Of a stretch of 64,000 bases of DNA, positions 2,800-44,887 are shown piece after piece. Below the pieces are notes generated by a model. It saw nothing but the letters and a program-made list of their open reading frames with translations. It searched no databases and was not told the DNA's origin. How positions within the stretch are numbered: the first letter of the stretch is position 1; every line of letters begins with the position of its first letter. The translations under genes were made by a program, and so were the position numbers. This DNA is from Candidatus Altiarchaeales archaeon (GTDB lineage: Archaea; Altiarchaeota; Altiarchaeia; IMC4; SCGC-AAA252-I15): contig WJMO01000007.1 of assembly GCA_014727915.1 (NCBI GenBank), forward strand, positions 1-64,000, given 5' to 3'.

Positions 2800-3007
2800 C
2801 TTAGTATATTATGTGCAAGACACACATATATAAGTATTGTACATTGTTCAATCGGGGTTTTGGGGGTCTGAAAACGGCGAATTCCCACACCAGAATATTA
2901 GAAACCGATTATTTAAAGCCAAAAGCAGTATATCTAAGACCCAGCAAAAACAAAACAAACAAAAACCACAATAATTTAAAAAAAAATCCAAACTATTTAT
3001 AAAAAAT

Positions 3008-3080
3008 GCCCCGGTAGTGTAGCGGACTATCATGCGAGACTGTCGATCTCGCGACCCGGATTCGAATTCCGGCCGGGGCG
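3008..3080 (+). tRNA. tRNA-Asp(GTC), integration target of the adjacent island
   Basis: GCCCCGG/CCGGGGC acceptor stem, CGAGA-CTGTCGA-TCTCG anticodon arm, TTCGAAT T-loop. Confidence 0.95.
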
Positions 3081-3099
3081 TAGAACCAAGTGATCGAAT

Positions 3100-4284
3100 T
3101 TAGGGGCCAACTAAAGCCCCCCTGAATTTCGTTTCCAGCCATCCTCTGAATTCCCGGTTTTTGTACAGTTCTACGAAGAATTTTCTGGCTTCTTGTTCTT
3201 CTTGTTCAATTGTTCCGAGGGCTTCTGGGATTAGGGGCGTTGCGCACCGGTTGCAGAACCAGCCGTCTGGTGGATTGACTTTATTGCATTTGCCGCATTT
3301 CCGTGGTTCCCTGGTTTCCATTGGTTCCGGGGGTTTGATGCCGTTCATCCCCAATATCACGTCGTCTATGTCCCGGCCGCTCAGGTGGACGTAGGTTGCC
3401 GCCATGTCCGAACCCATAACCCACCCGAAGAATGCGCATAGTTGGCTTTCAGTCATTATTTTTGCCAGCTCTGTCGCCCGGCTGTGCCGGAAATTGTGGG
3501 GGTAGCATTTGTTTAGCGGTATTCCCGCTTGTTTGGCTATTCTCTTTATCATCAGCCGTATTGCGTCGTATCGTATGGGTTTCTTGTACTGAAAATCTAT
3601 CCATAGCGGCGATTCAATGTCATCACCGTAGGGATGATTTCTGATCCAGACTCTCAAATTCTGTTCCGGCTCCAAGACGAGTATGCTTCTGGCTCCCGTC
3701 TTGCCTTTTTGTACGTGGACCCGGACCCCGTTTTCCTCAAATACTATGTCCTTAATCCGAAGCCCACCAAGTTCTCCGACTCTCAATCCGCCATAGTAGA
3801 GCAGAGATATTATGGCCCTGTCGCGGTCAAACTTGCACGCCCGGATAAGTTGAGTGACCTCCGTTACTGCTAGAAGTTGTTCCGGGAGTTTCTTATCCCT
3901 CCGTTTGACCGTGCATTTTATGAACTCAACTTTTTCAGGGAGTTTGCCCCCGTTCATTACCTTGTAAAACTTCTTTACCGCTACCTTAAGGTCTTTTTTG
4001 GTTTCAGCGGCTGAGTCGCAGAAGTTGATCTTTGTCACCAGCTCCCTCAGGTCCTTTTCGGTGGCGTCCAAGAAGTCGAATTTGTAGTCCGTTAGTCGCA
4101 TGAGTTTACCGTACATGCCGTAGTATTTGCGGATGCGCATTTTCCCTATGCCTTCTGAGGCCATCCTGTTTATGAATTCGTTTATGGCATCCTTGTTTTT
4201 CTGGCTAATTCTAGGGTTTTGATTGAACCGGTTCTTTTCGAACTCCATGGTGTATTTACCCCGGTATATCGAGTTAGCGTCCAT
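3100..4284 (-). CDS. Tyrosine recombinase/integrase with C-terminal Zn ribbon (resembles archaeal SNJ2-type integrases)
   Basis: Catalytic R (GLRVGE), K (GKTG), HxxR (HNFRHSRAT), W (FFGW) and Y (AATYVHL); CxxC...CxxC tail (CGKC/CNRC). Confidence 0.93.
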   Translation of the reverse strand: MDANSIYRGKYTMEFEKNRFNQNPRISQKNKDAINEFINRMASEGIGKMRIRKYYGMYGKLMRLTDYKFDFLDATEKDLRELVTKINFCDSAAETKKDLKVAVKKFYKVMNGGKLPEKVEFIKCTVKRRDKKLPEQLLAVTEVTQLIRACKFDRDRAIISLLYYGGLRVGELGGLRIKDIVFEENGVRVHVQKGKTGARSILVLEPEQNLRVWIRNHPYGDDIESPLWIDFQYKKPIRYDAIRLMIKRIAKQAGIPLNKCYPHNFRHSRATELAKIMTESQLCAFFGWVMGSDMAATYVHLSGRDIDDVILGMNGIKPPEPMETREPRKCGKCNKVNPPDGWFCNRCATPLIPEALGTIEQEEQEARKFFVELYKNREFRGWLETKFRGALVGP

Positions 4285-4562: not shown

Positions 4563-5027
4563 ATGGATAAATCGGTGGATTTTATGAGAGGGATTAATTC
4601 TCCCATTAAACCTCCTTCTCCCGATGTTTCTGAGAGGATGAGTCGGGTGAAAAGACAGGGAAGCAAGCTGGAAAAAGCAATGGAGAAAATTTTAAAAAAG
4701 GAGAAGATCAAGTATATTTATCAACCCAATGTTTATGGGCATCCAGACTTCCAAGTTTCGGGATCGAAGATAGTATTATTTTGTGATAGTTCCTTTTGGC
4801 ATGGTCGAAGAGAAAAAGAGGTTAGTGGTGAAGCCTTTAATAGGAATCGGAAGTTCTGGGTGGAGAAACTTAGGGCGAATAAAGCTCGGGATAAAAGAAC
4901 GAATCGTAAGCTTAGACGCGATGGTTGGAGTGTGTTGAGGTTTTGGGATGACGACATACTTAAGAATCCCCAAAAGGTTATCAACAAAATAAATAAAAAA
5001 ATCGATGAAAAATGTCGGGTAAACTAA
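4563..5027 (+). CDS. vsr: Very-short-patch repair endonuclease
   Basis: MSRVK..SKLE, GHPDF, FCDSSFWHG, FWVEKLRANKARD and GWSVLRFW motifs. Lies directly upstream of a C5 MTase. Confidence 0.92.
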   Translation: MDKSVDFMRGINSPIKPPSPDVSERMSRVKRQGSKLEKAMEKILKKEKIKYIYQPNVYGHPDFQVSGSKIVLFCDSSFWHGRREKEVSGEAFNRNRKFWVEKLRANKARDKRTNRKLRRDGWSVLRFWDDDILKNPQKVINKINKKIDEKCRVN

Positions 5028-6061
5028 CTGCGGTAGATCTGTTTTGTGGTGTAGGCGGTATTTCCCATGGATTCGTGAGGCAAAAGATATCAGTAGTCGC
5101 TGGAATAGACTCCGACTCCTCCTGTCAATATGCGTTTGAGAAAAACAACAAATCTAAGTTCATAAATAAGTCCATTGAGGAAATCTCAAGTTCGGAGTTA
5201 AAAAAGTTGTACCCCAATGGTTCGGTTAAGGTATTGATTGGCTGTGCCCCGTGTCAACCATTTTCATCATATACTAAAAAGAAGGCTAAAAAGAAGGGTA
5301 AGAAGGACCCCAAGTGGCATTTACTTAATCATTTCTCTCGTTTGGTCAAAGACGTAAAACCAGATATTATTTCAATGGAAAACGTACCGCATATAACAAG
5401 ACATCAAGTATTCAAGGATTTTGTTTCGACTCTAGAAAAACATAAATATAATGTAAAATGGGATATTGTCTTTTGTCCGGATTATGGAATCCCTCAAAAT
5501 CGAAAGAGGTTGGTTTTATTAGCTTCACGTTTGGGTGAGATTGAATTAACACCACCAACCCATGAAGAGTATGTGACAGTAAGAGATGCCATTTCACATC
5601 TCCCTAAGATAAAGGATGGGGAAAGAAGTAAGGATGACCCTCTTCATATAGCAAGCGTACTTTCCGAGAAGAATAAACAACGAATTGTACAAACTCCCGA
5701 AGGTGGTGGATGGAAGGATTGGGATGAATCTCTCATCGCTGATTGTCATAAGAAGGAAACTGGGAAATCGTATCGGAGCGTATATGGCCGAATGAATTGG
5801 GATGAACCCTCTCCTACAATAACCACTCAATGCAATGGATATGGAAACGGCCGGTTCGGTCACCCAGAGCAGAATAGGGCTATATCTTTACGAGAAGCAG
5901 CGATACTACAGTCATTTCCCGAAGATTATGAATTTATTGACCCAAATAGTAAATTTTTTATTAGATATATCGCTAGACAAATAGGAAATGCAGTGCCCCC
6001 AAAATTGGGGGAAATAATCGCAATATCGATAAAGGATCATGTTATGAAATACAATGGCTGA
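5012..6061 (+). CDS. DNA (cytosine-5)-methyltransferase, M.HgiDII-like family
   Basis: Motifs I (DLFCGVGG), IV (GCAPCQ), VI (ENV), VIII (PQNRKR), IX-X (SLREAA..Q, IGNAVP). TRD SVYGRM..PTITTQCNGYGNGRFGHPEQ resembles my recollection of the HgiDII/BbrUII-type MTases. Confidence 0.95.
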   Translation: MSGKLTAVDLFCGVGGISHGFVRQKISVVAGIDSDSSCQYAFEKNNKSKFINKSIEEISSSELKKLYPNGSVKVLIGCAPCQPFSSYTKKKAKKKGKKDPKWHLLNHFSRLVKDVKPDIISMENVPHITRHQVFKDFVSTLEKHKYNVKWDIVFCPDYGIPQNRKRLVLLASRLGEIELTPPTHEEYVTVRDAISHLPKIKDGERSKDDPLHIASVLSEKNKQRIVQTPEGGGWKDWDESLIADCHKKETGKSYRSVYGRMNWDEPSPTITTQCNGYGNGRFGHPEQNRAISLREAAILQSFPEDYEFIDPNSKFFIRYIARQIGNAVPPKLGEIIAISIKDHVMKYNG

Positions 6062-7958
6062 AAAAAAGAAAAAGGAATACCGAATAAATATTGATCCGCG
6101 TATTTTGGAACTCTTAGGTCCAAACCTGTATACAAACATTTATTATGTTCTCGCAGAACTAATTGCAAATGCTTATGATGCCAATGCAGACAATGTGTAC
6201 ATCATCCAAGAGGAGGATAAGTTAATTGTAGAAGACGATGGAATAGGCATGTCTTACGAGGAGGGTGACATCAATAAATATCTCGCCGTAGCAGTAGAGA
6301 CTAGGACCACGGAGGATGATGTTTATACTAAAGATAATCGGCGTAAACGTATAGGACGTAAAGGTATTGGGAAATTATCAGCGCTTTCCGTATCTGAAAA
6401 TGTTTACGTAATGACTGTTAAAGACGGGGAGAAATCGGGATTCATTCTATCCCGTCATGTTGATAGTGACCACCTATTACAACCAATTGATGAATCTGAT
6501 ATTTCATTTCGCCATATAGAAGAAAACGGCACTTCAATCATTATGACGAATCCAGAATACGGCCTCCATAGAACAGCAAAAGCCATAAAAAGAAATCTTT
6601 TAAAAATTTTCCCATACTTAGAATCTGATTTTACAATCCATATTAAAACCCAGACCGAGGACATAACTATCGAACAATTTGACAAAGAGATGATTGAAGA
6701 TTTAGGGGCCGTCATCTTGATGGGAGAGGAATTTCACAACCTAGCAAATTATTTCGATTGTCAGATAGAGGGCGTTTCTAACGAACAGAAAAAAAAGTTA
6801 CTCATTAAACGTGATGAAAAAAAATTCCCCTTGAAATTGAAGACAAGAGGTGGTGAGGAAAAAGAGTATGAATTAAGGATTAATGGCTGGATTGGAGCGT
6901 ATAGGACTACTAAAGGAAGAAAATCGGATAATACTGATTTCCCAGACAATTTTATTTCCCTTCTTGCCAACGGTAAACTTGGGGAATATAACATTCTACC
7001 GATTGCAGGGAAGAATAAGCTAATAGAGGTTTACATAGTCGGACAATTACATGTCGATCTTTTAGAGGAGACCGAACTCCCAGATATAGCATTAAGTAAC
7101 AGACAGGGATATAAATCGGATGATGAGAGATATCGGACAGTCATAAATTATGTTAGAGACGACCTCATCCCGGAAATAATTAATCTGAGAAACGCTTATG
7201 TAGATTTACGCGAACAACAAAAGAAGAAAGAGCAACAAGAAAAGGAGAAAAAAGATGAAGAAGAGCTTAGAAATAGAGTGGATAAATATACCAATGTTGC
7301 TACGGATAAGGTAGTTAAGGGTATTGAAACGGCAATAAAGGACAAACTACCAACCGAAGTAGTTCAAATGATACATGACGAATTAAATGAAGCCAAACCT
7401 CTCATGGGAATCAAGAGAAAAGTCGATACGCAAAAAAAGAAAGTATTGATATGTCATAGTTCAGGGGATAAGGTCCTTGCTGACGTCATATGTAAGATGT
7501 TAATTTACAATAATGTCCCTGACGTAGACATCATATACACAAGCTCAGAAAATGAAAACTGTCGTTCCCCTGAAGGTTCCGACCTTTTTGAATATTTAAA
7601 GGATTTCTTCGTGGAAAGTTATTCTACTGAAAAAATTTGGGTAATCTATGTAACAAGTGATGAGATGTCAAAATCGTGGTATGCAGTAACCGAAGTGGGC
7701 GCAGGTTGGATTACCAAAATAGACCATAAAATTTTCAATATACCTGGAGATGTTGGACATCAACCTCAGCAACCATTAAATATCAATCAGACCTGGCATA
7801 ACAGTGAAATTATTAAAGGCGAAGTAGCAATGAATGAAACAGAATTTGATAAATTCATTGTAAAGATAAGAGATGTATGCGAAAAAATTGGATACACGCC
7901 AAAAAGCAAAGAGGATAATGAAAAAGAATTAAAGAGATACGTCGAAGTAATAGATTAA
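6054..7958 (+). CDS. GHKL (MORC/MutL-like) ATPase - S5 domain - coiled coil - C-terminal TIR domain protein
   Basis: ELIANAYDA, EDDGIGMS, GRKGIGK and GTSI GHKL motifs; charged coiled coil. C-terminal VLICHSSGDK...IIYTS...YVTSDEMSKSWYAVTEVGAGW matches the prokaryotic TIR_2 pattern, with the catalytic Glu. Confidence 0.85.
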   Translation: MAEKKKKEYRINIDPRILELLGPNLYTNIYYVLAELIANAYDANADNVYIIQEEDKLIVEDDGIGMSYEEGDINKYLAVAVETRTTEDDVYTKDNRRKRIGRKGIGKLSALSVSENVYVMTVKDGEKSGFILSRHVDSDHLLQPIDESDISFRHIEENGTSIIMTNPEYGLHRTAKAIKRNLLKIFPYLESDFTIHIKTQTEDITIEQFDKEMIEDLGAVILMGEEFHNLANYFDCQIEGVSNEQKKKLLIKRDEKKFPLKLKTRGGEEKEYELRINGWIGAYRTTKGRKSDNTDFPDNFISLLANGKLGEYNILPIAGKNKLIEVYIVGQLHVDLLEETELPDIALSNRQGYKSDDERYRTVINYVRDDLIPEIINLRNAYVDLREQQKKKEQQEKEKKDEEELRNRVDKYTNVATDKVVKGIETAIKDKLPTEVVQMIHDELNEAKPLMGIKRKVDTQKKKVLICHSSGDKVLADVICKMLIYNNVPDVDIIYTSSENENCRSPEGSDLFEYLKDFFVESYSTEKIWVIYVTSDEMSKSWYAVTEVGAGWITKIDHKIFNIPGDVGHQPQQPLNINQTWHNSEIIKGEVAMNETEFDKFIVKIRDVCEKIGYTPKSKEDNEKELKRYVEVID

Positions 7959-8073
7959 TTAATTGATGCAATACGTTATAGAACGTGTCGATGAAGCGTA
8001 AATGGTTTTTTGATTTGCATTTCTCTTCACGTATTATCGACCTATATCGACAAGTCGTTTTCCGTTAATATTT

Positions 8074-8730
8074 TTGTTTATGAGGGAGTTTAAGTGTACT
8101 TGTGGGGCTGATAAGCCTAGTCGTATTGACAGTAATCGTCAGGTTTTTGTTAAAAGAGAGTTGCGGGATTATTTTGTTGATTTGCTTTTGAAAACGGGTT
8201 ATAGGGAGGTTAGGGATCCTGCGTTCTCCCAGGGCAGGGGAATAGCCTATCTCGTGAAGAATACGACTGGCGAGTCAAATCGCCATTTTATCCTATGGCA
8301 CCTAATATTCGAGGAGATTAAACGGTATACTGATGAGGTGAAATACCATCTTACAAGGGGCCCGGATGTGGAGTTTACCTCACTTGACGGCCGTAGAATA
8401 GCCGTTGAGGTTGAAGCCACAAAAAAGAACTATGGACAGATGGAGAGAAAGCTTAAGATATTGAAAAAGTATGATGGATGGTTTATAGTTGTCGCTAAAA
8501 GCCAGGATTTGAAACACTACCAAGGTTATGGGCCGACATTCACCCGGACTAAAATTCAAAATCTTATCGCCGAATATTTCAAGCCTGAACCACAGCCAGA
8601 ACCAAAAACAAAGCCCCAACCACTCCCAAAACCAAAAACAGAGCCATATACAAATAGTTCCTATTTGTATCAACAACCCATAATCCCAATTGACAAATCA
8701 AAAACCAAACGAAAGAGATATACTCTATAA
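8074..8730 (+). CDS. Hypothetical protein with a PD-(D/E)xK-like nuclease signature
   Basis: ESNRH ... GPDVEF ... IAVEVE motif and a Pro-rich C-terminal tail. Start is uncertain. Confidence 0.55.
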   Translation: MFMREFKCTCGADKPSRIDSNRQVFVKRELRDYFVDLLLKTGYREVRDPAFSQGRGIAYLVKNTTGESNRHFILWHLIFEEIKRYTDEVKYHLTRGPDVEFTSLDGRRIAVEVEATKKNYGQMERKLKILKKYDGWFIVVAKSQDLKHYQGYGPTFTRTKIQNLIAEYFKPEPQPEPKTKPQPLPKPKTEPYTNSSYLYQQPIIPIDKSKTKRKRYTL

Positions 8731-8815
8731 TATGTGCATATATTTTATAGGAGGGGCAGCTCTCCCCTAAGCACATTATATGATGTTAAAAAGGTGGAGA
8801 AGGATATATTGAACG

Positions 8816-9880
8816 ATGCAAGAGAAAATCCTCAAGATAATCGTCGGAGTAAGTGTAATAGCCCTTGTAGTAGTTTCTATTCTATTTTTTCAAAATAACA
8901 ATACACTCATGTTTTTCATCTCAATTGCAGCTAATTTTATCCAAATATTACTCTTCATTACTTGGTATTTCCAAGAGAATCCCATCCCTAAAAAAACTAT
9001 CACACAAATTGATGAGATACACCAAGCGACAAAGATACGGGAAGAGAAATACAAACGTAAGGAAATAATTATTACAAGGTTAATGAAGGAGGGTTTGATA
9101 AGAGAGTATGATCTTAAAAAGATATTTCAATCTCTTAAAAACAGGGAAGTTTTTCTGATACATACCTATGGTGAGGGAGTACCGGAAAATCTAAGAGAAT
9201 CATATAAGGGGGAATCACAGCCATTAATCACTATTTTAACAAAAATTGGATTTGTTAGAGTATTCGGGCAACATAACCTTTTTATTATTTTTAGAAAAAA
9301 TTTGCCAAGAAGTCTAAGGTCTTTGCAACGGTTGGAAGAATTCTTACTAAAAGAAGTGGAAAAAGTTTGGGAGAAGATTGGGAACTATACAAGAGAAAAA
9401 TATCCTGGTACAGACTATAAAATATATGAAAAATGGAGAACAAATGAAGGGTTTAAATGTAGTTATCTCATATTCAAAGCTGTGGAAGAGGATTTTATTG
9501 TAGGCTATAAAACAAGATACTCCTTTACTCCTCAATTTGTAAATTCAATTATTCGAGAGATTGAAATTGAGAAGATAAAACCATTAATTGACAACAGAGT
9601 AAAACTTCAAGAATTCGTAACGAAAACAAGTATTGAAATATTTTTAGAAGATTTCCCGAAAGACATTAAAAAAGCGATCCTGAATCAAGAACAAAGGTTA
9701 AAAAGTGCATTGGAAATAAAGAATTTCACTGATTTTAAGAATTTTACTTGTGAGACGCTCACTCAACAGTTTAATAAGTTGATTGGAGCAAACCCAGAAT
9801 GGGATAAGTATTCAGAATTGATTATAACCCAGGCAAAAGAATTTTATGATATACTTTATGAGTTAGGAATGGAAGCATAA
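8816..9880 (+). CDS. Hypothetical protein with N-terminal transmembrane helices (island cargo)
   Basis: 354-aa AT-rich ORF with two N-terminal hydrophobic segments followed by a soluble helical domain. Confidence 0.75.
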   Translation: MQEKILKIIVGVSVIALVVVSILFFQNNNTLMFFISIAANFIQILLFITWYFQENPIPKKTITQIDEIHQATKIREEKYKRKEIIITRLMKEGLIREYDLKKIFQSLKNREVFLIHTYGEGVPENLRESYKGESQPLITILTKIGFVRVFGQHNLFIIFRKNLPRSLRSLQRLEEFLLKEVEKVWEKIGNYTREKYPGTDYKIYEKWRTNEGFKCSYLIFKAVEEDFIVGYKTRYSFTPQFVNSIIREIEIEKIKPLIDNRVKLQEFVTKTSIEIFLEDFPKDIKKAILNQEQRLKSALEIKNFTDFKNFTCETLTQQFNKLIGANPEWDKYSELIITQAKEFYDILYELGMEA

Positions 9881-9944: not shown

Positions 9945-10030
9945 GCAACCTAGCCTCTTGATGGGGAAATCGCCTTTCAAAGTATAGTCATCGAGCCCCA
10001 GATATAGCCCAAGTATGCTGTTGGCCCTTG

Positions 10031-10155
10031 TTCTTGGTCTCCTGTTGGTGGTTTCGGCCGGGGCGTCGAACCATCCGACCGAATTTAGGGGCTGATATTT
10101 CAATCGATGATGGCTCTCTTTCTTGGTCGTCTGTTGGTAGTTTTGGCCGGGGCGT
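10031..10155 (+). repeat. Two tandem attR-like copies of the tRNA-Asp 3' end (89-bp period)
   Basis: 10031-10066 vs 10120-10155 match 32/36 nt. 10055-10092 matches 3070-3107 at 33/38 nt. Confidence 0.8.
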
Positions 10156-15591: not shown

Positions 15592-17052
15592 CTAGGGCCC
15601 TCCGTATACTACCCTGTTCCTTTTGCCGGAATGCTTCGAACCGTTAAGGCGGTCAAGGCCGATGCCTATCAGCTCATGGTATATCCTCATGGGGTCAACC
15701 CCCAGGTCCTCTGACTCCAGCATGCTGGCCGCCCCTACGGTGACAGTAACGGTTCCGGGGGGCAGGCCGAGTATTATGTTGCTTCCAGACTCCTGGACTG
15801 TAGTGTCTTCCGTCACCATTATCCTGTTATGTCCATCCCGGACCCTGAGCAGGGAAACGTCATCTCCTCGGACGATAAGGTCCTTCTTATCCGCAGGCAG
15901 TGCGACTGTGAACCTGTGACTCTCAACAGCGTCCTTTATGCCGGAAAGCCGCGATAAAGAGTTCACAGCCCCGTCCCACATGATGAACGTGAACTCGTCG
16001 CCGCCGTAGGCCCCCATTATGCCGTCTTCTCCAAGGACCTTCTTTGACAGTCTTACGAACTGGCGGATCACAGACGAGGCGGCAACGTGTCCGAAGGGGG
16101 AAACGACATGGTCTTTGAAACCGTCCAGGTCGCTGACTGCCAGTATAACGGACTCTGGGCTTTCAAGGTTCGAGGTGAGATGCTCGCGGGACCTGGCTTC
16201 GAAACTCCTCCGGTCCATCGCGCCCGATATAGGGTCTTCTGCCAGGCGGCTTTTCTTGTGTATCTCAACTGCTATGGGGCCCGCGACTACGCCTACGTTC
16301 TCCAGGTCGCTCTCTCCGATGTTGCGAGTGCTCCTGTTCAACAGCATGACACACCCTATTATGTTCTTGTCACCGTCGGCGGGCAGGATGTTCAACGGCA
16401 CCACCGCCATCTTCCGCACGTCATCCCCGACAACCACAAGGTCCTGTTCAACGGGTTTGACGTTCACGGCTTCGGAACCGGTCAGGATGGACTTGACTAT
16501 CTCCGACTCGCCGGATAGCTCCCGCGTGGGGCGGAATAGCTTGCCGCCCCGCATGTGATAGTATTGTATGGTTCCGCCGTCAAGCGTGATCGGGTCTTCC
16601 GTGATCAAAGCTATGCCAACATCGCTGACATGGGTCATCCCCGATAGCCCGGAGATGGTATGCCTCACTGTGTCACGCAGGGAGAGTGTGGGATCGCCTA
16701 TGGTGGATGTGAGCTTTTCACGCATGGCATACTCCGGCTTGGTAGTCAGTGCGCCTGTGATCACGTCCACTGCGAAGTCAACCGTCCTACCCCGGTATTC
16801 TGGAATGCGTATCCTCGCATCCCCGATCGAAGTCCCGTCGCCCTTCCGAACACCCTGGGGTATGCTTATCCTCCAGTCGAGTATCTCGACTCCCGTGGGG
16901 TCCAATGGGACGACCCTGTCGCCCTGGTCCTCTATGAGCCGGAAGTCCTCCCCGCCCCGCATCTTGGAGGGGTCATAAGCCTGAAGATCCGCATCATATG
17001 GGTTCACCACCATGCTTATACGGGGGTAAATCCGTCGCGCCTTCTCGGGCAT
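15592..17052 (-). CDS. GAF + GGDEF domain protein (divergent dinucleotide cyclase-like)
   Basis: GAF-like MAVVPL..IIGCVMLLN..ESDLE; DPISGAMDRRSF, SDLDGFK, FGH, YGGDEF, VTVTVG and SKHSGKRNRV. Confidence 0.82.
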   Translation of the reverse strand: MPEKARRIYPRISMVVNPYDADLQAYDPSKMRGGEDFRLIEDQGDRVVPLDPTGVEILDWRISIPQGVRKGDGTSIGDARIRIPEYRGRTVDFAVDVITGALTTKPEYAMREKLTSTIGDPTLSLRDTVRHTISGLSGMTHVSDVGIALITEDPITLDGGTIQYYHMRGGKLFRPTRELSGESEIVKSILTGSEAVNVKPVEQDLVVVGDDVRKMAVVPLNILPADGDKNIIGCVMLLNRSTRNIGESDLENVGVVAGPIAVEIHKKSRLAEDPISGAMDRRSFEARSREHLTSNLESPESVILAVSDLDGFKDHVVSPFGHVAASSVIRQFVRLSKKVLGEDGIMGAYGGDEFTFIMWDGAVNSLSRLSGIKDAVESHRFTVALPADKKDLIVRGDDVSLLRVRDGHNRIMVTEDTTVQESGSNIILGLPPGTVTVTVGAASMLESEDLGVDPMRIYHELIGIGLDRLNGSKHSGKRNRVVYGGP

Positions 17053-34172: not shown

Positions 34173-35738
34173 TCACGCGCCCTCCTCCTCTTCCCTATCT
34201 CCGAGCAGCGCCTCAGGACCCTCGTCGGACAGCACGACTTTGACCACTGTCTTACGGTCGATGTAGTAGCGGTTGAGTATCCTCCCTACTTCGTCGACCT
34301 TGCGTATATCGTGCTTGACCATCCAGTTGAGTATGTTCTTCTTGAGGTTGATGTCCTCCACGACCTCGGCCCTCGTCAAACCCGTGTGCCGGTATAACTC
34401 GGTGAACAACCTCATGGGCTCCACGTTGGGGACTATCTCGTCCTCCCGCGCATCCCACCGGTATATGATGTTAGGCTTGTACCGCACTTCCCCGGACCTC
34501 CGCTTCTCCTCGTCCATCAGGAACTCCCCGACCTCGAATATGCGCCTTATGTTACGCCTCCGGTCCCGGAACATCACGACGTTGAGGTGAACCGCCTCCA
34601 ACATGCTGTGGGGCACCTCTATCGGGGGGTTGGTTATCCTCGTTATGGTCTGCTCGCAGGTGTCCGCGTGTATCGTGCAGTATACCGAGTGCCCTGTGTG
34701 CATCGCCTCGAACAGCACCTCAGCCTCCCGCTTCTTACGTATCTCGCCCATGACTATCCGGTCCGGCCGCATCCTAAGAGAGTTAACCAGCAGGTCCAGC
34801 ATGCTGACCTCGCCCTTCCCCTCGGGGTTGGGTTCCCGGGTCGTGAGGGGACACCAGTAGAGGTACTCTGGGAGCTGCAGCTCCCTGGTGTCCTCGATGC
34901 TGATTATGCGGTGGTTGGGCGGCATGAAGGGCATGCAGATGTTCAGGAAGCTCGTCTTCCCCGACCCTGTCCCTCCGCTGACGACTATGTTCATCTCGTA
35001 TTGTATCATCAGCCAGATGAGAGCCAGCACCTCGGGGGTGGCGGTACCCGTCTTTATGAAGTCGGGGGCGGTCCACGGGTCCCTCGCGAACTTACGGATG
35101 GTTATCGTATTCCCCTTGGTCGCTATGGGCGTCAGGATGGCGTTGGCACGGTCTTTGCTCACGAGATGGGCGTCCAATAGGGGGCTGAGGGTGGTTATCT
35201 CCCGGCCGACCCGCCTGCCGATGGTGTTGGCATAGTTTTGGATGCGCATCTCGTTCTGTGGTGTGATGTTCGACTTGAGCCATCCGAACTTCTTGTGGTA
35301 TACTCTTATGGGCTCTGACGCGGAGTTTATTACTATCTCCTCCAGGTTCGGGTCGTTCAGGAAGAACTCTATCTCGTCTAGGCCGAGTAGCTCGTGCAGC
35401 ATGCTCAGCACGAAGTGGGTCTTCATCTCCGGGTCCAATCCGGGAAGCTCCTCGTCCAGTATAACCCCGGCTTTCTGCTCGAACTCCCCCTTCAACTGGC
35501 CCAGCAGCTTGGGGTCGAGTATCTCGCTGGTGCTCATCTCTACGCCGGCTATCAGGCGGTCTTTTATGTCGTCCAACAGGGCCATCGTAGCGACGTCCAC
35601 CTCGGGAAGTATGAGCTTGTAGTAGGGTACGAAGTCCCTCATGATTATCTGAACGTGCGTTTCAACGCCTTCAGACTGTATCGTGTAGGAGTCCAGTACT
35701 TCGCCGTCAGCGGCCTTCTCACTTTTTTCCTTTGCCAT
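34173..35738 (-). CDS. Type II/IV secretion system ATPase (CpaF/VirB11/FlaI family)
   Basis: ITIRKF, Walker A GGTGSGKT, SIEDTRE, LRMRPDRIVMGEIR and MHTGH..TIHA. Confidence 0.95.
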   Translation of the reverse strand: MAKEKSEKAADGEVLDSYTIQSEGVETHVQIIMRDFVPYYKLILPEVDVATMALLDDIKDRLIAGVEMSTSEILDPKLLGQLKGEFEQKAGVILDEELPGLDPEMKTHFVLSMLHELLGLDEIEFFLNDPNLEEIVINSASEPIRVYHKKFGWLKSNITPQNEMRIQNYANTIGRRVGREITTLSPLLDAHLVSKDRANAILTPIATKGNTITIRKFARDPWTAPDFIKTGTATPEVLALIWLMIQYEMNIVVSGGTGSGKTSFLNICMPFMPPNHRIISIEDTRELQLPEYLYWCPLTTREPNPEGKGEVSMLDLLVNSLRMRPDRIVMGEIRKKREAEVLFEAMHTGHSVYCTIHADTCEQTITRITNPPIEVPHSMLEAVHLNVVMFRDRRRNIRRIFEVGEFLMDEEKRRSGEVRYKPNIIYRWDAREDEIVPNVEPMRLFTELYRHTGLTRAEVVEDINLKKNILNWMVKHDIRKVDEVGRILNRYYIDRKTVVKVVLSDEGPEALLGDREEEEGA

Positions 35739-37740
35739 CCGAGCCCTCCTTGGTAGACTTATCAGAGTGTATGCTTATTATCTCAGGTTCGCCGATGGTT
35801 GGGTACCTGAGCTCCAGCAGGTTGTGCTCTTCCAGTATCATGGCCCAGGCCTCTATCTGGGTCTTGCTGACCTTCATCTTCTTCGCCAAGGCCTCATTTA
35901 TCTTCAGCCTCCCCTTGGACTCCACCATCTCATAGAGCAGGTCTATGTTCGTGTGTATCTTCTTGCCCTCCTCCACACGCTTGTTGAAGCCCTTGCCGTC
36001 CTTGCCCAATGTTATCTTCGGCGCATCCCTGAGACGCCTTATCTCGTCCTTCCGCTTCTCCTTCGCCAAAATGTCTCCCGCCGATGATATGGGAGATGAT
36101 CCGCCACCAGACCGCTGCATCTTCAGCTCTTCGAGCCTCGCGGACTTTCTCTCATCGACCTGCTTCTCGCCTGTCCCGGCGCCGCCATCCTTTGTCTTCC
36201 GGAGCTCCGCGTATCTTTGGGCTTTGACAGGGTCAAGGTTGAGGTTTCTCGCGAAGTCTATCAGGTTGAATCCGCCACCTATCTTCTTGACCTTCCTCTT
36301 CTCCTTCAGCATCTTCCTGCGCTCTTCCTTCGCTGCGTCAGATCCTCCGGAGAAGACGCTCTTAAGACCGGACATCACGGATTTCTTCTCCTTCTCGCCC
36401 GGTTCCGGCCTGAGCCGGGATTTGATCTTTATCTTCAGGGTTGAGAGTTTCACCGGCTTGGACAGCATGTAGTTTATGTTGGTGCGGACGGACTCGTTCA
36501 GGTCGTCCTCTGTCATCTCGAATATCTCGAGGTCTCCCTTGGTCCCGACGAACTCCGTCTGTATCTCGGAGAGGGCCTCATCACCGAATGTGACCTCCGC
36601 CTGGTCCATGTGCTCGAAAGATGCCGCTACTATCTCGCCCTTGTCTATGAGCAGGCCGGCGGTGTAGGCTTGGTCGTCGAGTTCCGCGTACAGCCTCATC
36701 GCGCCCACGAACTCGGTGGCAAGGCTCTTGCACACGTTCCTGAACTCCTCCTCCGTCTCCGGCATTACCTTGTCGCCGCTGACGACCATCTTGGACGAAT
36801 CCCGGCCTTTATCCCCATCCTGCCGGGCAGGCTCTGGCTCTGACCCGCCCTGGGATCCGGTTCCTGAGACAGCGGATGTTTCGGGTTTGCCCACATCCCC
36901 TGCCGTGGGCTCTTCTGCAGGGGTTTCAGCTGTTGTTGTGGGGGGAGCTTCCTGGCCGGACTCCGAGGGCTCTTGAGACGTTGAAAACCCGGTTTCGGGA
37001 GTCGGGGTCCCGGACTCGACCGGGATTTCAGGTGTCGTAGGTGAGGGTTCGGGCTCTGAATGCTCGGGGGGTGAAGTGGGATGTTCGGTCGGGGTTGGAG
37101 ATTCGGATGTTGAGGGTGATATTTCCTGCGAGGATGAACTGCTGGTTTCAGGTGTTTCAGCCGCAGGCTCCTGTTCGGACTCCGGTGTAGGCGAAGGCGC
37201 AGGCTCGGGGGTTGCGGCGGGTGTGGGCTGGGATTCGGGTTGGGGGATAGGTGGGGGTTCAGGCGGTGTTGTGTCTGGGGCGGACTGGACAGGCTCGGTT
37301 GCGGGGATTGGCTCTGCCGTGGCAGGGGTCTCCGGAGACGCAGCCGCTGTTCCCTGCGCTCCCCCAGAAGTGGGGGGTGTCTGCTGGCCATCAGATGGCG
37401 TTTCCGGCTCGCCTGAGGGGTCGGATGGAATGCCAGGGTCGGGGGAGGGAGTAGGTGCGTGCGGTTCCTTGTGTTCGTGGGATTTCAGCACCGCACCGCC
37501 GGATATGCTGTATTCGGTCTTGCCGAGGAACTTCTTCTTGACCTTGATTATGCCCTTATCCTTCAGGTAGGAGGTGTAGCGGCCCAGTTCCTTCTTGTCG
37601 ATTCCCGTAGAGGATGAAAGCTCCTTGTCCGAGACCACACCCCGGCGTTTTATCTCGTCTAAGACGCGTTTAAGGCGTAATGCCCCCTGTTTCTTCCGTT
37701 CTTCAACGCCCCCGTGAAGCCGGTTCTTAACGTCGGACAT
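35719..37740 (-). CDS. Pilus-locus protein: N-terminal wHTH-like domain, Pro/Glu/Thr linker, DUF2226-like domain, C-terminal wHTH-like domain
   Basis: ELSSSTGIDKKELGRYTSYLKDKGII; about 230-aa low-complexity linker; GLLIDKGEIVAA..GDEAL; TNIDLLYEMV..IEAWAMILEEHNLL. Confidence 0.7.
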   Translation of the reverse strand: MSDVKNRLHGGVEERKKQGALRLKRVLDEIKRRGVVSDKELSSSTGIDKKELGRYTSYLKDKGIIKVKKKFLGKTEYSISGGAVLKSHEHKEPHAPTPSPDPGIPSDPSGEPETPSDGQQTPPTSGGAQGTAAASPETPATAEPIPATEPVQSAPDTTPPEPPPIPQPESQPTPAATPEPAPSPTPESEQEPAAETPETSSSSSQEISPSTSESPTPTEHPTSPPEHSEPEPSPTTPEIPVESGTPTPETGFSTSQEPSESGQEAPPTTTAETPAEEPTAGDVGKPETSAVSGTGSQGGSEPEPARQDGDKGRDSSKMVVSGDKVMPETEEEFRNVCKSLATEFVGAMRLYAELDDQAYTAGLLIDKGEIVAASFEHMDQAEVTFGDEALSEIQTEFVGTKGDLEIFEMTEDDLNESVRTNINYMLSKPVKLSTLKIKIKSRLRPEPGEKEKKSVMSGLKSVFSGGSDAAKEERRKMLKEKRKVKKIGGGFNLIDFARNLNLDPVKAQRYAELRKTKDGGAGTGEKQVDERKSARLEELKMQRSGGGSSPISSAGDILAKEKRKDEIRRLRDAPKITLGKDGKGFNKRVEEGKKIHTNIDLLYEMVESKGRLKINEALAKKMKVSKTQIEAWAMILEEHNLLELRYPTIGEPEIISIHSDKSTKEGSDGKGKK

Positions 37741-37790
37741 AATCCACCAATATACATTTACCCCCAGTAGATTAAAATTAAAAGGGGGGT

Positions 37791-40385
37791 TCAGGAGCAT
37801 GTGACGTTGAAGTCGTCCACGTAGAAGCCGTACTGGGTGAAGATGTCATTGTTCGAATCCAGCCTGAACCGAACCCAAAGGCTGCCGCCGGCGTAGGAGC
37901 TCAGGTCATAGGAGTGCTGGGTCCAGACGTCCTCCCTCCAGCTGCCGCTCATCAGCTCGTCCCAGCTGTTTCCGTCAGATGAAGCCTCGACATAAACCTC
38001 ATCACCGGCGCCCAGGACAACCCAGTACTTGTCCATGAAGTAGAGTGTGACAGGCCCTGCGACACCTGACAGGTCGATCTCTGGGCTCTCCAGCCACTCG
38101 TTGGCGTTCTTGTTGTAGTCGTGGCTTAGGTCAGTCGCCCAGCAGCTGCTCCCAGAGTATGCATTGCCCCACCAGGGGTCGCCAAGCTCCCACTCGTCCT
38201 GGGGGCCTCCGTGTGTCCAAAGGCCTTCCCCGGATTCCATGTCGTCGAAGAAGCCGCAAACGGAAGGCGGGGAAGTCGTGGAAGTTGTTGAGGAGGTCGT
38301 TGTCGTGGAGGTGGTGGTCGGCCCGGAAATGCATGCTGGATTGCCCGCGTCCAGGTCCGCCCGGAAGGTGTAGGATCCGTTGTATCCGAAGCGTGGAGCG
38401 TCAACGTCCAATGCGATTATGTATGTTTCGCCCCCGATTACACAGTAGGATTCAAGGTTGACAGGCTCCATGTTCAACCTCACCTCAGGAGATGACGTGC
38501 ACATGCCGTCGAGGGAGTAGTTGTAGATTATTATGTCTGTCCGGTCGTCGCCTGTCACGTTGCTGGTTCCCGTGAACGTCAGGTCTAGCAGCCCGTCAGA
38601 GGAGGGAGTGAACTGGTAGAAGTGCCATTCGCTGGTGTTATACCCGTAGTAGTCGCATGTGACCTGGTTACCGTCGGTTAGCCCCGGGGGTAGGGGCGAG
38701 TCACAGGTGGTGCAGAAGTCGAGGTCGTCGTAGTCGCAGTCGTGTATCTCGCCGCAGCCTGTGAAGTATATGAGGCAGTCGTAGTCGAGCCAGTCGGGCT
38801 GTCCGTCCAGGTCGTCGTCGGCGCCGTCCACACAGACCTCAGTGGAGCCGGGGCAGCCGGTGACGTTCACGCAGACCGTGTCCACGTCTAATACCTCGGC
38901 GTGGGCATCGTCCAAACGCATCACAAATTCGTCGGATGGGCAGACACCTTTCACGGCGCAGCCTTCGACCCCCTTCCAGTAGAGGTAGTCCACCCAGGTG
39001 GCGTTTTCGGTCACTGTTATCCCATGGTAGTCCAGGTAGAATGGGTCGACCAGCGTCTCCAACCCTATGTCGGAGGTGTTGAAGAAGTGCATGCTCTGTG
39101 TGGCGTACTTGTCTGAGAGGTTGTATCGGCCGTCCAAGCGGTCGAAGAAGGAAGGTCCGTCGAAGCCGCCGAATGCGCTGGCGTTGCTGACCTGGTAGCA
39201 TGTGGTGTTGATGGAGTTCGAGGCGATCCCTATAAGAACCTGGTGTATGTCGCAGTCATCGTTGTTCAGTATCTGGATGCACGCCCCCTCCGAGAACTCG
39301 CCCTCGTCGCACCCTGCCGGCCGGTCCCATCCTGGGACCTGCGGCGGTTCGGTGTCCATGTCCCCCGTCGCAGTGATCCAGGGTATGGTGAGGTTGCATT
39401 TCTTTGCGAAGCTCTCGGGGGCGTTCTTCTGGTAGTTGATTATGCCCGCGAACGAGTTCGGGTGGCTTGAGTTGAAGCAAACATGCTCCTCGTACTGGTT
39501 GCATCCTCCGAAGCCCTGGTCCAACACGAGTATCAAACCGCTGATGACATCAGGGTCCTCGTTGATGCAGTAGTCAGCTAAGCTCCCATAGTCCGCCTTT
39601 ATGGTGGAGTGGAAGACCACGTCACCTGTCGCCTGGCCGACTCCGGGGGACTCGGTCATTATGCTGCAGCCGGCTATCATCTCGTTGTCGATGAATGTGG
39701 TGCAGTTGTTGATGTACTTTATCACGAACGAGTTCGTGTTCAGGGGGAATAGGGGATCCTCCAGTCCGATGATGGACGTTGGGGAAGCCACGAGGACACT
39801 GTCCCCGACGTAGTAGCATGTGCCCGCCTCGTCGTATACGTTGAAGGACGTGTTGGCGATGGCCATGAAAGTCCACGGGTCCCTGGGGATCAGGTGGAGC
39901 GTGTTCAGGGATATGTTCACGACGAAGTGCATGTCCCTCCCCTGACTTTCTATGCGGTCAAGCCACTGTGAGAGGGTGTGGTTTACCATGTAGCTGATGT
40001 TCTGGTCGTGTAGTGTGCCGCACATTATGAGCTCGGTCAGCGCGGCCTCGCTGCCATTCACGCCCATCCGGAACCTGTCACAGTTCACATGGCATGAGGG
40101 AGTGCATTTGAAGGAGTAATCCTGGAGGTCGTCGCCGGACAGAACAACATCGTCTATGGCGTAGATGGTCGCTCGCCTTCCGAATATGACCAGGGCCCGC
40201 TCCAGGTCTCCGCGGACGTCCTCGACGAAGTAGTGGAGCTCATCGCATCTTATCTTGGATATGGTGTCGTCTGTCTTGGTCTTGGAGACCGTCGCATAGT
40301 ATGACACGAAGAGTATCAGGGGTATGACTAGCAGGACGACGGCTATCGTGAAGAATAGTCCTCGCTTTTCCTTTTTCATAGCCAC
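37791..40385 (-). CDS. Large pilin-like (class III signal) Cys-rich protein with C-terminal MAM/immune-inhibitor-A-like domain
   Basis: KRG|LFFTI plus hydrophobic helix; GLEDPL; CVDGADDDLDGQPDWLDYDC; FDDMESG..W..LESPEIDLS..FRL..D..G.YVDD. Confidence 0.75.
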   Translation of the reverse strand: MAMKKEKRGLFFTIAVVLLVIPLILFVSYYATVSKTKTDDTISKIRCDELHYFVEDVRGDLERALVIFGRRATIYAIDDVVLSGDDLQDYSFKCTPSCHVNCDRFRMGVNGSEAALTELIMCGTLHDQNISYMVNHTLSQWLDRIESQGRDMHFVVNISLNTLHLIPRDPWTFMAIANTSFNVYDEAGTCYYVGDSVLVASPTSIIGLEDPLFPLNTNSFVIKYINNCTTFIDNEMIAGCSIMTESPGVGQATGDVVFHSTIKADYGSLADYCINEDPDVISGLILVLDQGFGGCNQYEEHVCFNSSHPNSFAGIINYQKNAPESFAKKCNLTIPWITATGDMDTEPPQVPGWDRPAGCDEGEFSEGACIQILNNDDCDIHQVLIGIASNSINTTCYQVSNASAFGGFDGPSFFDRLDGRYNLSDKYATQSMHFFNTSDIGLETLVDPFYLDYHGITVTENATWVDYLYWKGVEGCAVKGVCPSDEFVMRLDDAHAEVLDVDTVCVNVTGCPGSTEVCVDGADDDLDGQPDWLDYDCLIYFTGCGEIHDCDYDDLDFCTTCDSPLPPGLTDGNQVTCDYYGYNTSEWHFYQFTPSSDGLLDLTFTGTSNVTGDDRTDIIIYNYSLDGMCTSSPEVRLNMEPVNLESYCVIGGETYIIALDVDAPRFGYNGSYTFRADLDAGNPACISGPTTTSTTTTSSTTSTTSPPSVCGFFDDMESGEGLWTHGGPQDEWELGDPWWGNAYSGSSCWATDLSHDYNKNANEWLESPEIDLSGVAGPVTLYFMDKYWVVLGAGDEVYVEASSDGNSWDELMSGSWREDVWTQHSYDLSSYAGGSLWVRFRLDSNNDIFTQYGFYVDDFNVTCS

Positions 40386-43612: not shown

Positions 43613-44157
43613 ACCGTAAAGTAGAGCCTCGTTATCTCACCGTCCAAGACCGCAGTCCTGGTTATCGTCATCGCCTCCGTGTCGTTGGACGGAACCCTCC
43701 CAACTCCCATAGCCTCGCCGTCGACTTCAACCACGGACCCGTTAAGGTATGTAAGGTTGAAGTAAAAATCGTATCCTCCGATCCCGAGTAGGTATAGGTT
43801 GCATTCGTAGTTGCTGCCCCCCGGCAGGCTGCACAGGTCAGTCTGCCCATGGTCCATGAAGTGCTTGAACTCCAGCAGCTTGTAGGGGACTAGGACGCGG
43901 CTCTTGTTGGACAGGCCCAGCGAGGTCACATTGTCCAGAACCCAGTTCTCAGGGGTTCCGGGCGTGCGTATCAGCTTCTCAGCAGCTTCAACGCCGAATT
44001 CTGCCATGGTCCTCTGGTCTTCTGCCTGGAAGAGGTCCCGGGTGGATAGGTCCCACAGGTGCAGTATCAGCATCAGACCCGCCATGAAGAGCATGAACGC
44101 TATGAGGAACTCTCCGCTGAAAACCTGGCCTTTGGATTGCGCCTTCATTTTGGTCAT
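43603..44157 (-). CDS. Minor pilin-like protein (class III signal)
   Basis: KGQ|VFSGEFLIA; LIRTPGTPENW..GL motif. Confidence 0.78.
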   Translation of the reverse strand: MTKMKAQSKGQVFSGEFLIAFMLFMAGLMLILHLWDLSTRDLFQAEDQRTMAEFGVEAAEKLIRTPGTPENWVLDNVTSLGLSNKSRVLVPYKLLEFKHFMDHGQTDLCSLPGGSNYECNLYLLGIGGYDFYFNLTYLNGSVVEVDGEAMGVGRVPSNDTEAMTITRTAVLDGEITRLYFTVWR

Positions 44158-44852: not shown

Positions 44853-44887
44853 CCCACTATAAATATGGTCACACATATCTTTAATTA

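Follow-up and report, generated by a model that had tools for sequence, protein, structure and literature searches.

Fusions of a GHKL ATPase and an S5-like domain to a TIR domain have been described before. Iyer, Abhiman and Aravind (2008; PMC2292703) recognized such proteins computationally as "paraMORC4" in neighborhoods with methylase and Vsr genes, and suggested a nuclease or an allosteric role for the fusion; the passages of that paper which treat the family do not raise NADase activity of the TIR domain. In the literature searched, we found no experimental work on any member of the GHKL-TIR family. The TIR domain has its closest solved relative in SpbK of Bacillus subtilis ICEBs1, an experimentally shown NADase of 266 aa which works as a single-gene system and senses a phage portal protein through an N-terminal 4-helix bundle (PMC12847820). 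The ATPase half has relatives among the type II restriction enzymes of the BbrUII/HgiDII family. As a bona fide member of that family we used a control protein, P0126, which scored 830 bits against NF050001 over profile positions 2-659 (cut-off 550), and whose C-terminus reads as PD-(D/E)xK-like (IDIGY...VEMK). A phage record names a relative "ParaMORC3."

The locus described here lies in a 64-kb stretch of DNA (the window), on a low-GC island of about 7 kb that carries vsr, C5 methyltransferase, and GHKL-TIR genes. The island is limited at one side by a tRNA-Asp and an integrase and at the other by a second copy of the 3' end of that tRNA, and its GC content is 0.33-0.43 against 0.52-0.58 in the flanks. 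The tRNA-Asp (GTC), called by ARAGORN at 3007..3081 on the + strand, is the integration target, and its 3' end is the left copy of the direct repeat; the right-hand, att-like copy is at 10052..10092 (+ strand; repeat families D3 and D2), and the pair (3067-3107 and 10052-10092) is 85% identical. A further, degenerate copy was seen at 10108-10155. The integrase (3100..4284, - strand) is a 394-aa tyrosine recombinase with a C-terminal zinc-ribbon-like tail (PF00589, 3.6e-20), which also matched the phrog_1 integrase family and, below the cut-off, the XerA-type model NF040815 (1.6e-31). An earlier note on this DNA had proposed an integrase-bounded island in an archaeal genome; the tRNA, integrase, repeat, and low GC were all found, and the host is archaeal, with RF01959 as the best model of its clan at 1426 bits.

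The acquisition had also been called recent. The island anatomy supports this, as does the finding of no close homologue in any of the 40 relatives searched; the abundance of GTCGAC, which had been offered as a further argument, does not. GTCGAC is indeed present at positions 970, 2329, 19621, and 20831, and the window holds 21 sites against 15.6 expected, a count that is not unusual because 9 of 100 shuffles reach it. The observed-to-expected ratio in the genome is 0.90, which carries no date. The TCGA-core hexamers ATCGAT, CTCGAG, and TTCGAA have ratios of 0.70-0.78, which is inside the range that palindromes generally show, and we drew no target-site inference from these statistics.

Two further island ORFs of 218 aa and 354 aa (8074..9880, + strand) have no assigned function. 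Neither fell into a Pfam, PADLOC, NCBIfam, or PHROG family, the 218-aa ORF having weak matches below cut-off only, and neither had a tblastn match across 80 related loci; they lie outside the conserved system. We considered the 218-aa ORF (8074-8730) as a hidden nuclease partner and rejected it, as no family scored above cut-off, its sequence matched nothing in the PDB, and the related loci showed no counterpart. Its look-alikes in the Atlas are archaeal hypothetical proteins.

The three genes of interest were read at the outset as co-oriented and overlapping, and the ORFs (4563-5027, 5012-6061, and 6054-7958, all on the + strand) do overlap, by 16 nt and 8 nt. The first encodes a Vsr-family very-short-patch endonuclease of 154 aa (4563..5027; PF03852, 4.3e-10, above the cut-off), matched also by the PADLOC Vsr model (2.5e-11) and, below its cut-off, by TIGR00632 (5e-25). 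Its presumed role is to repair the T:G mismatches produced when 5mC is deaminated. The second encodes a C5 cytosine DNA methyltransferase of 349 aa (P0002; 5012..6061; PF00145, 3.8e-64) of the DrmMII-like subfamily that partners BbrUII/HgiDII enzymes: its best PADLOC model is DrmMII (326 bits), and it is 52% identical over 346 residues, its full length, to the dcm product encoded upstream of P0126.

The third gene encodes the 634-aa GHKL-TIR protein. Residues 1 to about 357 (6054..7124, + strand) comprise a GHKL ATPase with an S5-like transducer (PF13589, 1.8e-17), and residues 358-447 (7125..7394, + strand) a long helical, coiled-coil-like linker, for which DSSP assigned helices at 358-428 and 434-447 in the AF2 model. 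The GHKL motif residues E35/N39/D42, D61/G63/G65, G101/G104/G106/K107, and G159/T160 do not vary across the 39 aligned homologues, nor does the S5-type K354, and the model (pLDDT 81.5) matched Hsp90/MORC/MutL ATPase-plus-transducer folds with E values of 1e-11 to 1e-13. The motifs, S5 region, and coiled coil that had been read from the sequence are thus borne out, and the fold check suggested for this part of the protein returned the MORC-like ATPase. PADLOC labels the N-terminus REase_II; beyond this model match, Pfam, NCBIfam, and PADLOC gave no nuclease family in the protein.

The relation to the BbrUII/HgiDII enzymes stops at the end of the ATPase half. The N-terminal 392 residues are 28% identical to P0126 (E 7e-33), BLASTP found no similarity to it past residue 392, and NF050001 scored only 219.3 bits (cut-off 550), covering profile positions 1-399 of 659. 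The two loci have in common the homologous GHKL+S5 region of about 390 residues, a partner C5 methylase of one subfamily, and the position of that methylase directly upstream of the R gene and overlapping it, whereas the C-terminal ~260 residues are unrelated, being PD-(D/E)xK-like in P0126 and a coiled-coil linker plus TIR here. The whole-protein score and the want of a nuclease-like C-terminus place the GHKL-TIR protein outside the BbrUII/HgiDII family, although it shares the adjacent partner methylase. The suggestion that a restriction subunit had exchanged its nuclease for a TIR domain holds: with N-terminal homology to P0126, a 52%-identical methylase, and a TIR in place of the PD-(D/E)xK-like end, the locus represents a nuclease-to-TIR swap on one RM chassis. 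Recognition of the DNA site sequence in the nuclease-type relatives could sit in the nuclease domain that was lost.

The C-terminal domain, residues ~460-634 (7431..7958 with the stop codon, + strand), is a TIR of the SpbK type with E547 as the predicted catalytic Glu. This region matched the PADLOC spbK model (5e-19, profile positions 81-245 only) and, by sequence, SpbK in the PDB (9phb, E 7.5e-11). Foldseek, a check that the earlier note had suggested, returned the SpbK TIR as the best match (4.4e-7), and a VIA-wide structure search placed SpbK first (Z 11.4 over 146 residues), followed by the TIRs of MyD88, RPP1, and TRR-2; these searches agree with the initial reading of a TIR-like end which retains its Glu. 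TIR chains of SPARTA, the short pAgo with TIR-APAZ, were also among the structural matches. In SPARTA, recognition of invader nucleic acid leads to TIR oligomerization and NAD+ loss, a logic that resembles the scheme proposed below, but targets are found by guide RNA and Argonaute, and there is neither an ATPase nor a methylase.

In the SpbK numbering of PMC12847820, the catalytic E192 and the alphaC-helix interface residues G194 and W197 align with E547 (in ...AVTEVGAGW), G549, and W552, and all three are conserved without exception (39/39 and 38/38 sequences). The modeled NAD-pocket residues S121, S122, T148, F162, L165, and Y188 of SpbK correspond to S469, S470, T496, F512, L515, and Y543. 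In many members the Hx[ST]xD loop (HSSGD at 468-472) has Q in place of H468, and Y543 varies among homologues, so the NAD pocket differs from that of SpbK. The sensor halves differ as well: in place of the 4-helix bundle, the GHKL-TIR protein has a 450-residue GHKL clamp, and its gene is coupled to that of a DNA methylase, so that it carries an SpbK-type TIR with its Glu without being a single-gene SpbK system. By described architecture it agrees with paraMORC4, in its GHKL motifs, S5 basic residue, C-terminal TIR, and Hx[ST]xD loop, and in the cytosine methylase and Vsr of its neighborhood (PMC2292703). The novelty first claimed for the fusion was therefore overstated, as it had been described in 2008.

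The text on paraMORC4 in PMC2292703 calls the family infrequent and patchy. In contrast, a profile scan of genome contigs, built from the alignment, found relatives in at least 550 species-representative genomes, spanning DPANN archaea, Patescibacteria, Bacteroidota, and Pseudomonadota; a scan with the single GHKL-TIR protein as query gave no relative. The architecture search recommended in the earlier note revealed a wide, methylase-paired family; that note had missed both the spread and a subset in DISARM operons. Neighborhoods were counted in 80 related loci out of the at least 550. An orthologous C5 methylase is present in 77 of the 80 genomes; it lies nearby in 55 of the loci (44-59% identical), and 47 of 56 methylase matches are directly upstream, co-oriented, and at most 141 nt away. 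The genomic coupling of GHKL-TIR to one C5-methylase subfamily is near-obligate. Across these 80 loci, no gene was found to be conserved alongside the pair besides a vsr-like ORF (21/80), which argues for the TIR domain itself as the effector. The family is annotated almost everywhere as "ATP-binding protein," and defense finders probably take it for a standard type II restriction enzyme.

In 23 of the 80 loci, the GHKL-TIR gene sits within a class 1 DISARM operon, between drmMI and drmA/drmD. The idea that these were methylase-free, autonomous GHKL-TIR genes was overturned by whole-genome finds of the C5 methylase just outside the loci: 21 of the 23 genomes keep the orthologue (47-55% identity), and in at least 13 the contig that holds the sampled locus also carries the methylase gene, in the same orientation and 1.6-3.2 kb past the upstream end of the locus. 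In the one operon that was mapped, from Alcanivorax, the gene order is C5-MTase, DrmD, DrmMI, GHKL-TIR, DrmA. Other defense genes (AspBHI-like, KAP NTPase, AbiGi) are interposed in single DISARM loci. The window's genome (90.6% complete) had no match to DrmA, and among the island ORFs PADLOC gave no DISARM match except that of the methylase to DrmMII. The class 1 DISARM of Serratia sp. SCBI (10.1101/2021.12.28.474362) is alike in its DrmMII methylase, but as described there it has six genes and no GHKL-TIR. Loss of the methylases of that system was reported not to bring about autoimmunity, a result which bears only indirectly on GHKL-TIR because of this difference in gene content.

We consider methylation-gated NAD+ depletion by a horizontally acquired RM-like module to be the best explanation of the locus, with about an even chance of being correct. 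The C5 methyltransferase would mark the host's own DNA, and Vsr would mend the T:G mismatches left by 5mC deamination. The 634-aa protein would be the "restriction" arm: its GHKL+S5 ATPase, of the paraMORC/BbrUII-HgiDII type, would use ATP to clamp DNA on which the methylase mark is missing, and the long helix would join two subunits. Where several clamps load on unmethylated DNA, the SpbK-type TIRs would come together in the two-stranded, head-to-tail arrangement required by TIR NADases, and this assembly would trigger hydrolysis of NAD+ and halt the infected cell. Since a cell that had lost the island would also be killed, the module may serve for addiction. We infer that the GHKL half senses DNA methylation state and that NAD+ depletion is the output. 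Kinship of the TIR to SpbK, the invariant ATPase motifs, the nuclease-to-TIR swap, the coupling to the methylase, and the finding of no further conserved gene besides the vsr-like ORF favor this scheme; the differences in the NAD pocket, the chance that site recognition went with the lost nuclease domain, and the nuclease or allosteric role proposed in 2008 count against it. Complex prediction for the methylase and the full-length GHKL-TIR protein, with an alignment supplied for each, scored 0.00 against a mark of 0.32 and was counted neither way.

The trigger could instead be a phage protein or interference with methylation or restriction, and not unmethylated DNA, in which case the protein would guard the cell by abortive infection and the methylase would be an inhibitor, a partner, or a mere neighbor. 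SpbK is triggered in this manner by the phage portal protein (PMC12847820), and the 23 DISARM-embedded loci, with other defense genes interposed in some, fit such a role. However, the bundle with which SpbK senses is replaced by a DNA-clamp-type ATPase, and one C5-methylase subfamily stays coupled in 77 of 80 genomes, even across two large genes, which is the pattern predicted by a modification/restriction pair; we regard this alternative as unlikely.

Slightly less likely, in our judgment, is a true restriction enzyme, whose TIR-like domain would cut or process DNA at unmethylated sites as a nuclease or as a 2',3'-cNMP-synthetase-type enzyme. Activity on DNA or RNA has been reported for some plant TIR domains. 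The gene takes the position of a nuclease-type R gene beside an orthologous methylase, PADLOC scores its N-terminus as REase_II, and a nuclease was proposed in 2008 by analogy with paraMORC3, MutL, and topoisomerases (PMC2292703). Against this, SpbK, the nearest relative by both sequence and fold, is an NADase, its catalytic Glu and filament-interface residues are invariant in the family, and no bacterial TIR nuclease appeared among the literature searched or the matches obtained.

We find it improbable, and a little more so, that the TIR makes a cADPR-type second messenger for an effector encoded elsewhere, as in Thoeris. SpbK does yield N1-cADPR besides ADPR (PMC12847820), and the DISARM-embedded loci offer potential downstream partners, but no extra gene is conserved in the 55 simple loci or in the island, whose two further ORFs are unique to it. 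A MutL-like accessory factor with no part in defense, which would assist Vsr in very-short-patch repair of the sites that the methylase modifies, would accord with the functional interaction of E. coli MutL and Vsr discussed in PMC2292703 and with the vsr gene of the window operon, but is very improbable given that a vsr-like ORF is present in just 21 of 80 loci, that a TIR with a conserved NADase Glu is of no evident use to a repair factor, and that the genes travel on mobile islands and in DISARM operons.

If methylation does gate a TIR NADase, the RM logic of telling self from non-self by epigenetic marks would feed straight into abortive infection through loss of a metabolite; these two strategies are usually regarded as separate layers. 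More tentatively, and at somewhat less than even chance, we propose a large, cross-domain class of RM-like systems that answers a missing 5mC mark by TIR-mediated NAD+ destruction and not by cutting DNA, the same pair serving as an extra abortive-infection arm in a subset of class 1 DISARM. If this is true, a family annotated as "ATP-binding protein" gains a function, and some class 1 DISARM "DrmMII" methylases could belong to an embedded methylase/GHKL-TIR module, which could account for part of the unexplained behavior of class 1 DISARM with a second, cytosine methylase. The module also offers a compact two-gene test bed, in which the effector that goes with one methylase subfamily and a homologous ATPase can be a nuclease or a TIR. 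For the archaeal host, the module would be a recently acquired mobile defense or addiction module.

Three co-oriented, overlapping genes lie on the + strand at 4563-5027, 5012-6061 and 6054-7958, with overlaps of 16 and 8 nt, exactly as the earlier note had placed them. The first encodes a Vsr-family endonuclease (PF03852, 4.3e-10; PADLOC Vsr, 2.5e-11; TIGR00632, 5e-25, under the model cut-off). The second encodes a C5 cytosine methyltransferase (PF00145, 3.8e-64) with DrmMII as its best PADLOC model (326 bits), and the third a 634-aa protein with a GHKL ATPase domain (PF13589, 1.8e-17).

Residues 9-425 of the third protein match positions 1-399 of 659 in NF050001, the model for BbrUII/HgiDII family restriction enzymes, at 219 bits vs a cut-off of 550, and the PADLOC REase_II models fall on the same N-terminal part. 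The GHKL motifs proved complete, as had been claimed: E35/N39/D42, D61/G63/G65, G101/G104/G106/K107 and G159/T160 are invariant across 39 aligned full-length homologues, as is the block S348-K354 of the S5-like region. In the AlphaFold2 model of the protein (pLDDT 81.5, pTM 0.60), the ATPase and a transducer of mixed alpha/beta structure are recognisable, along with a long helix at 358-447, and the whole model matched N-terminal structures of Hsp90, MORC2/3/4 and MutL (E 1e-11 to 1e-13).

The C-terminal half resembles SpbK. The PADLOC spbK model matches residues 405-565 (5e-19) and the SpbK PDB chain 9phb matches residues 406-568 (7.5e-11). The C-terminal domain was also modelled alone from 38 sequences (pLDDT 84.8, pTM 0.82), and the SpbK TIR filament was the top Foldseek match of this model (E 4.4e-7, TM 0.60/0.68), which bears out the TIR call. 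The Foldseek list also contains the MyD88, SPARTA, RUN1 and TcpB TIRs, mixed with non-TIR chains. SpbK again came first in an all-against-representatives VIA search (Z 11.4, 146 residues, rmsd 4.2), followed by the MyD88, RPP1 and TRR-2 TIRs and then by flavodoxin-like folds. After correcting a 24-residue offset of the PDB chain, the catalytic glutamate of SpbK, E192, aligns with E547, and its interface residues N191, G194 and W197 correspond to T546, G549 and W552. For the NAD pocket as modelled in SpbK, residues S121, S122, T148, F162, L165 and Y188 align with S469, S470, T496, F512, L515 and Y543. E547, G549, A550 and W552 do not vary in either homologue alignment; departures from the SpbK likeness are H468, which is Q in many relatives, and Y543, which is not conserved. 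A profile search with the TIR domain matched 961 representative clusters at E <= 1e-3. The best 50 (<= 1e-30) either have ~580-675 aa with the domain placed C-terminally or are shorter, and the weaker matches are shorter TIR proteins that cover only the first ~110 profile positions.

For comparison, we used P0126, a plasmid-borne protein of Rhizobium acidisoli whose NF050001 match (830 bits over positions 2-659) makes it a genuine member of the BbrUII/HgiDII family. Over the first ~390 residues of P0126, identity with the window protein is 28% (E 7e-33); after that the two share no alignable sequence. We read IDIGY...VEMK, in the P0126 C-terminus, as a PD-(D/E)xK motif, in agreement with the paraMORC3 family description of Iyer et al. 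2008 (PMC2292703). The methylase directly upstream of P0126 is 52% identical to the window methylase over 346 residues, a likeness that takes in the variable region separating the catalytic motifs from the C-terminal ones. The shared N-terminus, the differing C-terminus and the related methylase thus point to one ATPase-plus-methylase chassis fitted with either a nuclease or a TIR domain. On this sequence comparison, the proposal that a nuclease had been swapped for TIR stands. Structural neighbours in the ESM Atlas carry Hypoth_Ymh, SduA_C and TIR_2 C-termini on related ATPases, each in some cluster members, and we treat these as leads to further C-terminal alternatives. Separately, Escherichia phage PhiR44_1 encodes a nuclease-type relative at 8032-9063, annotated "ParaMORC3".

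The family is widespread. A word-indexed search listed 120 matches, all full-length (618-648 aa, 53-62% identity), from ANME-1 archaea, Patescibacteria, Desulfuromonas, Actinomycetota, Kiritimatiellales and others, annotated as "ATP-binding protein" at most. Relatives are encoded by 550 stretches of species-representative genomes, and we surveyed the locus context of the best 80. A C5 methylase match was present in 56 of these 80 loci, 55 of them at 44-59% identity and one (L075) at 31%; 47 of the 56 lie directly upstream and co-oriented, within 141 nt, and the others are downstream, divergent or more distant. One locus, L074, has the GHKL gene at its very start; the methylase's N-terminal half was found elsewhere in the same assembly. 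In a Planctomycetota MAG (L048:6001-7886), the GHKL-TIR frame is broken, the match covering residues 7-337 and being followed by a separate 289-aa ORF, a break due to either a frameshift or a misassembly. Listeria monocytogenes NZ_CP030101.1, a 2.9-Mb record filed among plasmids, encodes an unannotated full-length homologue (46.8% identical) at 1894324-1896198.

A further 23 loci had no methylase inside the fetched 6-kb flanks. In these the GHKL-TIR gene is flanked on one side by a DrmMI-type adenine methylase and on the other by DrmA or DrmD, a class-1 DISARM context, and PADLOC scored DrmMI at 1967 bits, DrmA at 1578-1684 bits and DrmD at 1932 bits in the DISARM loci scanned. One is in Alcanivorax limicola (L085:4375-13060 and L013:6001-11924); the other 22 are L014, L015, L017, L020-L023, L025, L026, L028, L044, L047, L048, L050, L056, L058, L060-L062, L065, L069 and L076. 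A methylase-independent GHKL-TIR in DISARM loci was considered and overturned, as whole-genome searches with the window methylase turned up an orthologue (47-55% identical) in 21 of the 23 genomes. In at least 13 of them the orthologue is co-oriented, under the same contig number, 1.6-3.2 kb past the upstream end of the fetched locus, and in the two genomes lacking a match (L056, L062) the contigs stop just upstream of drmMI. Overall, an orthologous methylase is present in 77 of the 80 genomes. The one operon mapped, that of A. limicola, reads C5-MTase, DrmD, DrmMI, GHKL-TIR, DrmA, and such an embedded methylase/GHKL-TIR pair may account for the "extra DrmMII" in some class-1 DISARM systems. 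Single DISARM loci have other defence-type genes adjoining GHKL-TIR (L023:7881-9077, L060:7890-9089, L058:3775-5913, L076:5008-5808), namely an AspBHI-like 5mC-dependent endonuclease, a KAP NTPase and AbiGi.

In a FastTree tree of 76 loci and the window, from which matches containing a stop or not spanning residues <=20 to >=620 were dropped, DISARM-embedded genes are nested among simple pairs, with seven context changes, at least five forced by well-supported branches. A supported clade of 7-8 simple-pair genes, belonging to Planctomycetota, Patescibacteria, Woesearchaeota and Nanoarchaeia, takes in the window protein.

The window operon sits in a ~7 kb island with a GC content of 0.33-0.43, vs 0.52-0.58 outside. 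The island is bordered by tRNA-Asp (3007-3081), next to a minus-strand tyrosine recombinase (3100-4284), and a 41-nt segment made up of the tRNA 3' end and adjoining sequence is found twice, at 3067-3107 and 10052-10092 (85% identical). The right border has degenerate tRNA-Asp 3'-end copies in tandem (10019-10066 and 10108-10155, 83% alike), which suggests successive integrations at the tRNA. The host is an archaeon (archaeal SSU model best of clan, 1426 bits) with a genome of 1.81 Mb, 90.6% complete. A close GHKL-TIR homologue was absent from all 40 relatives searched (one in the genus, 19 more in the family and 20 in the order), one same-order genome giving a 35% match to residues 6-198 only. 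Together with the island anatomy, this absence indicates a recent horizontal acquisition. The island ORF at 8074-8730 has archaeal (Nanobdellota) hypothetical proteins as Atlas look-alikes and a weak Replic_Relax lead, and its C-terminal part includes a short proline/lysine-rich tandem repeat (KPEPQPEPKTKPQPLPKPKTEP, 8581-8640). Elsewhere in this archaeal window, a minus-strand 485-aa ORF (15592-17049) with a weak GGDEF-domain match (2.4e-7) adjoins glycosyltransferase, trehalose-phosphatase and glycoside hydrolase genes. Large ORFs cluster at 34173-48271, among them those for a T2SSE-type ATPase, a DUF2226 (archaeal) protein, a 1077-aa VWA-domain protein and a 1128-aa beta-propeller/FG-GAP protein; the cluster may be a surface-structure locus.

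HgiDII and BbrUII cut GTCGAC. This site occurs 21 times in the window vs 15.6 expected, never in the island and 740 times in the genome (O/E 0.90), and these counts are uninformative. According to a preprint (10.1101/2021.12.28.474362), the DrmMII of a Serratia class-1 DISARM methylates MTCGAK. From this motif and the HgiDII site, the window methylase would be expected to act on NTCGAN-type palindromes.

The GHKL-TIR fusion is already known, and the novelty suggested in the earlier note was overstated. Orlowski and Bujnicki 2008 (PMC2441816) recognised that R.HgiDII has a GHKL N-terminus and left its C-terminus unassigned. The families paraMORC1-5, from methylase/Vsr/helicase neighbourhoods, were defined by Iyer, Abhiman and Aravind 2008 (PMC2292703), who found that paraMORC4 ends in a TIR domain with an Hx[ST]xD loop and suggested for it the role of a nuclease or an allosteric site. 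In a 2026 preprint on Tiamat, paraMORCs are still no more than "proposed" RM-like components, and the term TIR does not occur. Neither an experimental study of a GHKL-TIR protein nor a description of one inside DISARM was found in full-text searches of a mainly open-access literature collection. As far as these searches show, the predicted SpbK-type NADase character, the abundance, the strict methylase coupling and the DISARM-embedded form are unpublished.

The domain identities, the conserved catalytic and assembly residues, the exchange of domains with respect to a nuclease-type restriction enzyme and the near-obligate link to one methylase subfamily are shown by these data. SpbK is an experimentally demonstrated NADase whose activity requires filament formation (PMC12847820). 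We propose that the ATPase half would clamp on DNA without the 5mC mark, and that the TIR domains of several loaded dimers would then join in a two-stranded assembly with a composite NADase site, as in SpbK. The resulting loss of NAD+ would abort infection or kill cells that lose the island. We give this reading as a whole about even chances. It is unlikely that a phage factor activates the protein and the methylase is a regulator; the link to one methylase subfamily is near-obligate. A TIR that acts on DNA, as the 2008 authors proposed (PMC2292703), seems a little less probable again, and no nuclease fold appeared among the matches listed in structure searches with the C-terminal domain. We rate a signalling TIR with a remote effector slightly lower still; the island's two downstream ORFs had no match in any of the 80 loci. 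A repair accessory is very improbable, a vsr-like ORF being present in 21 of the 80 loci.
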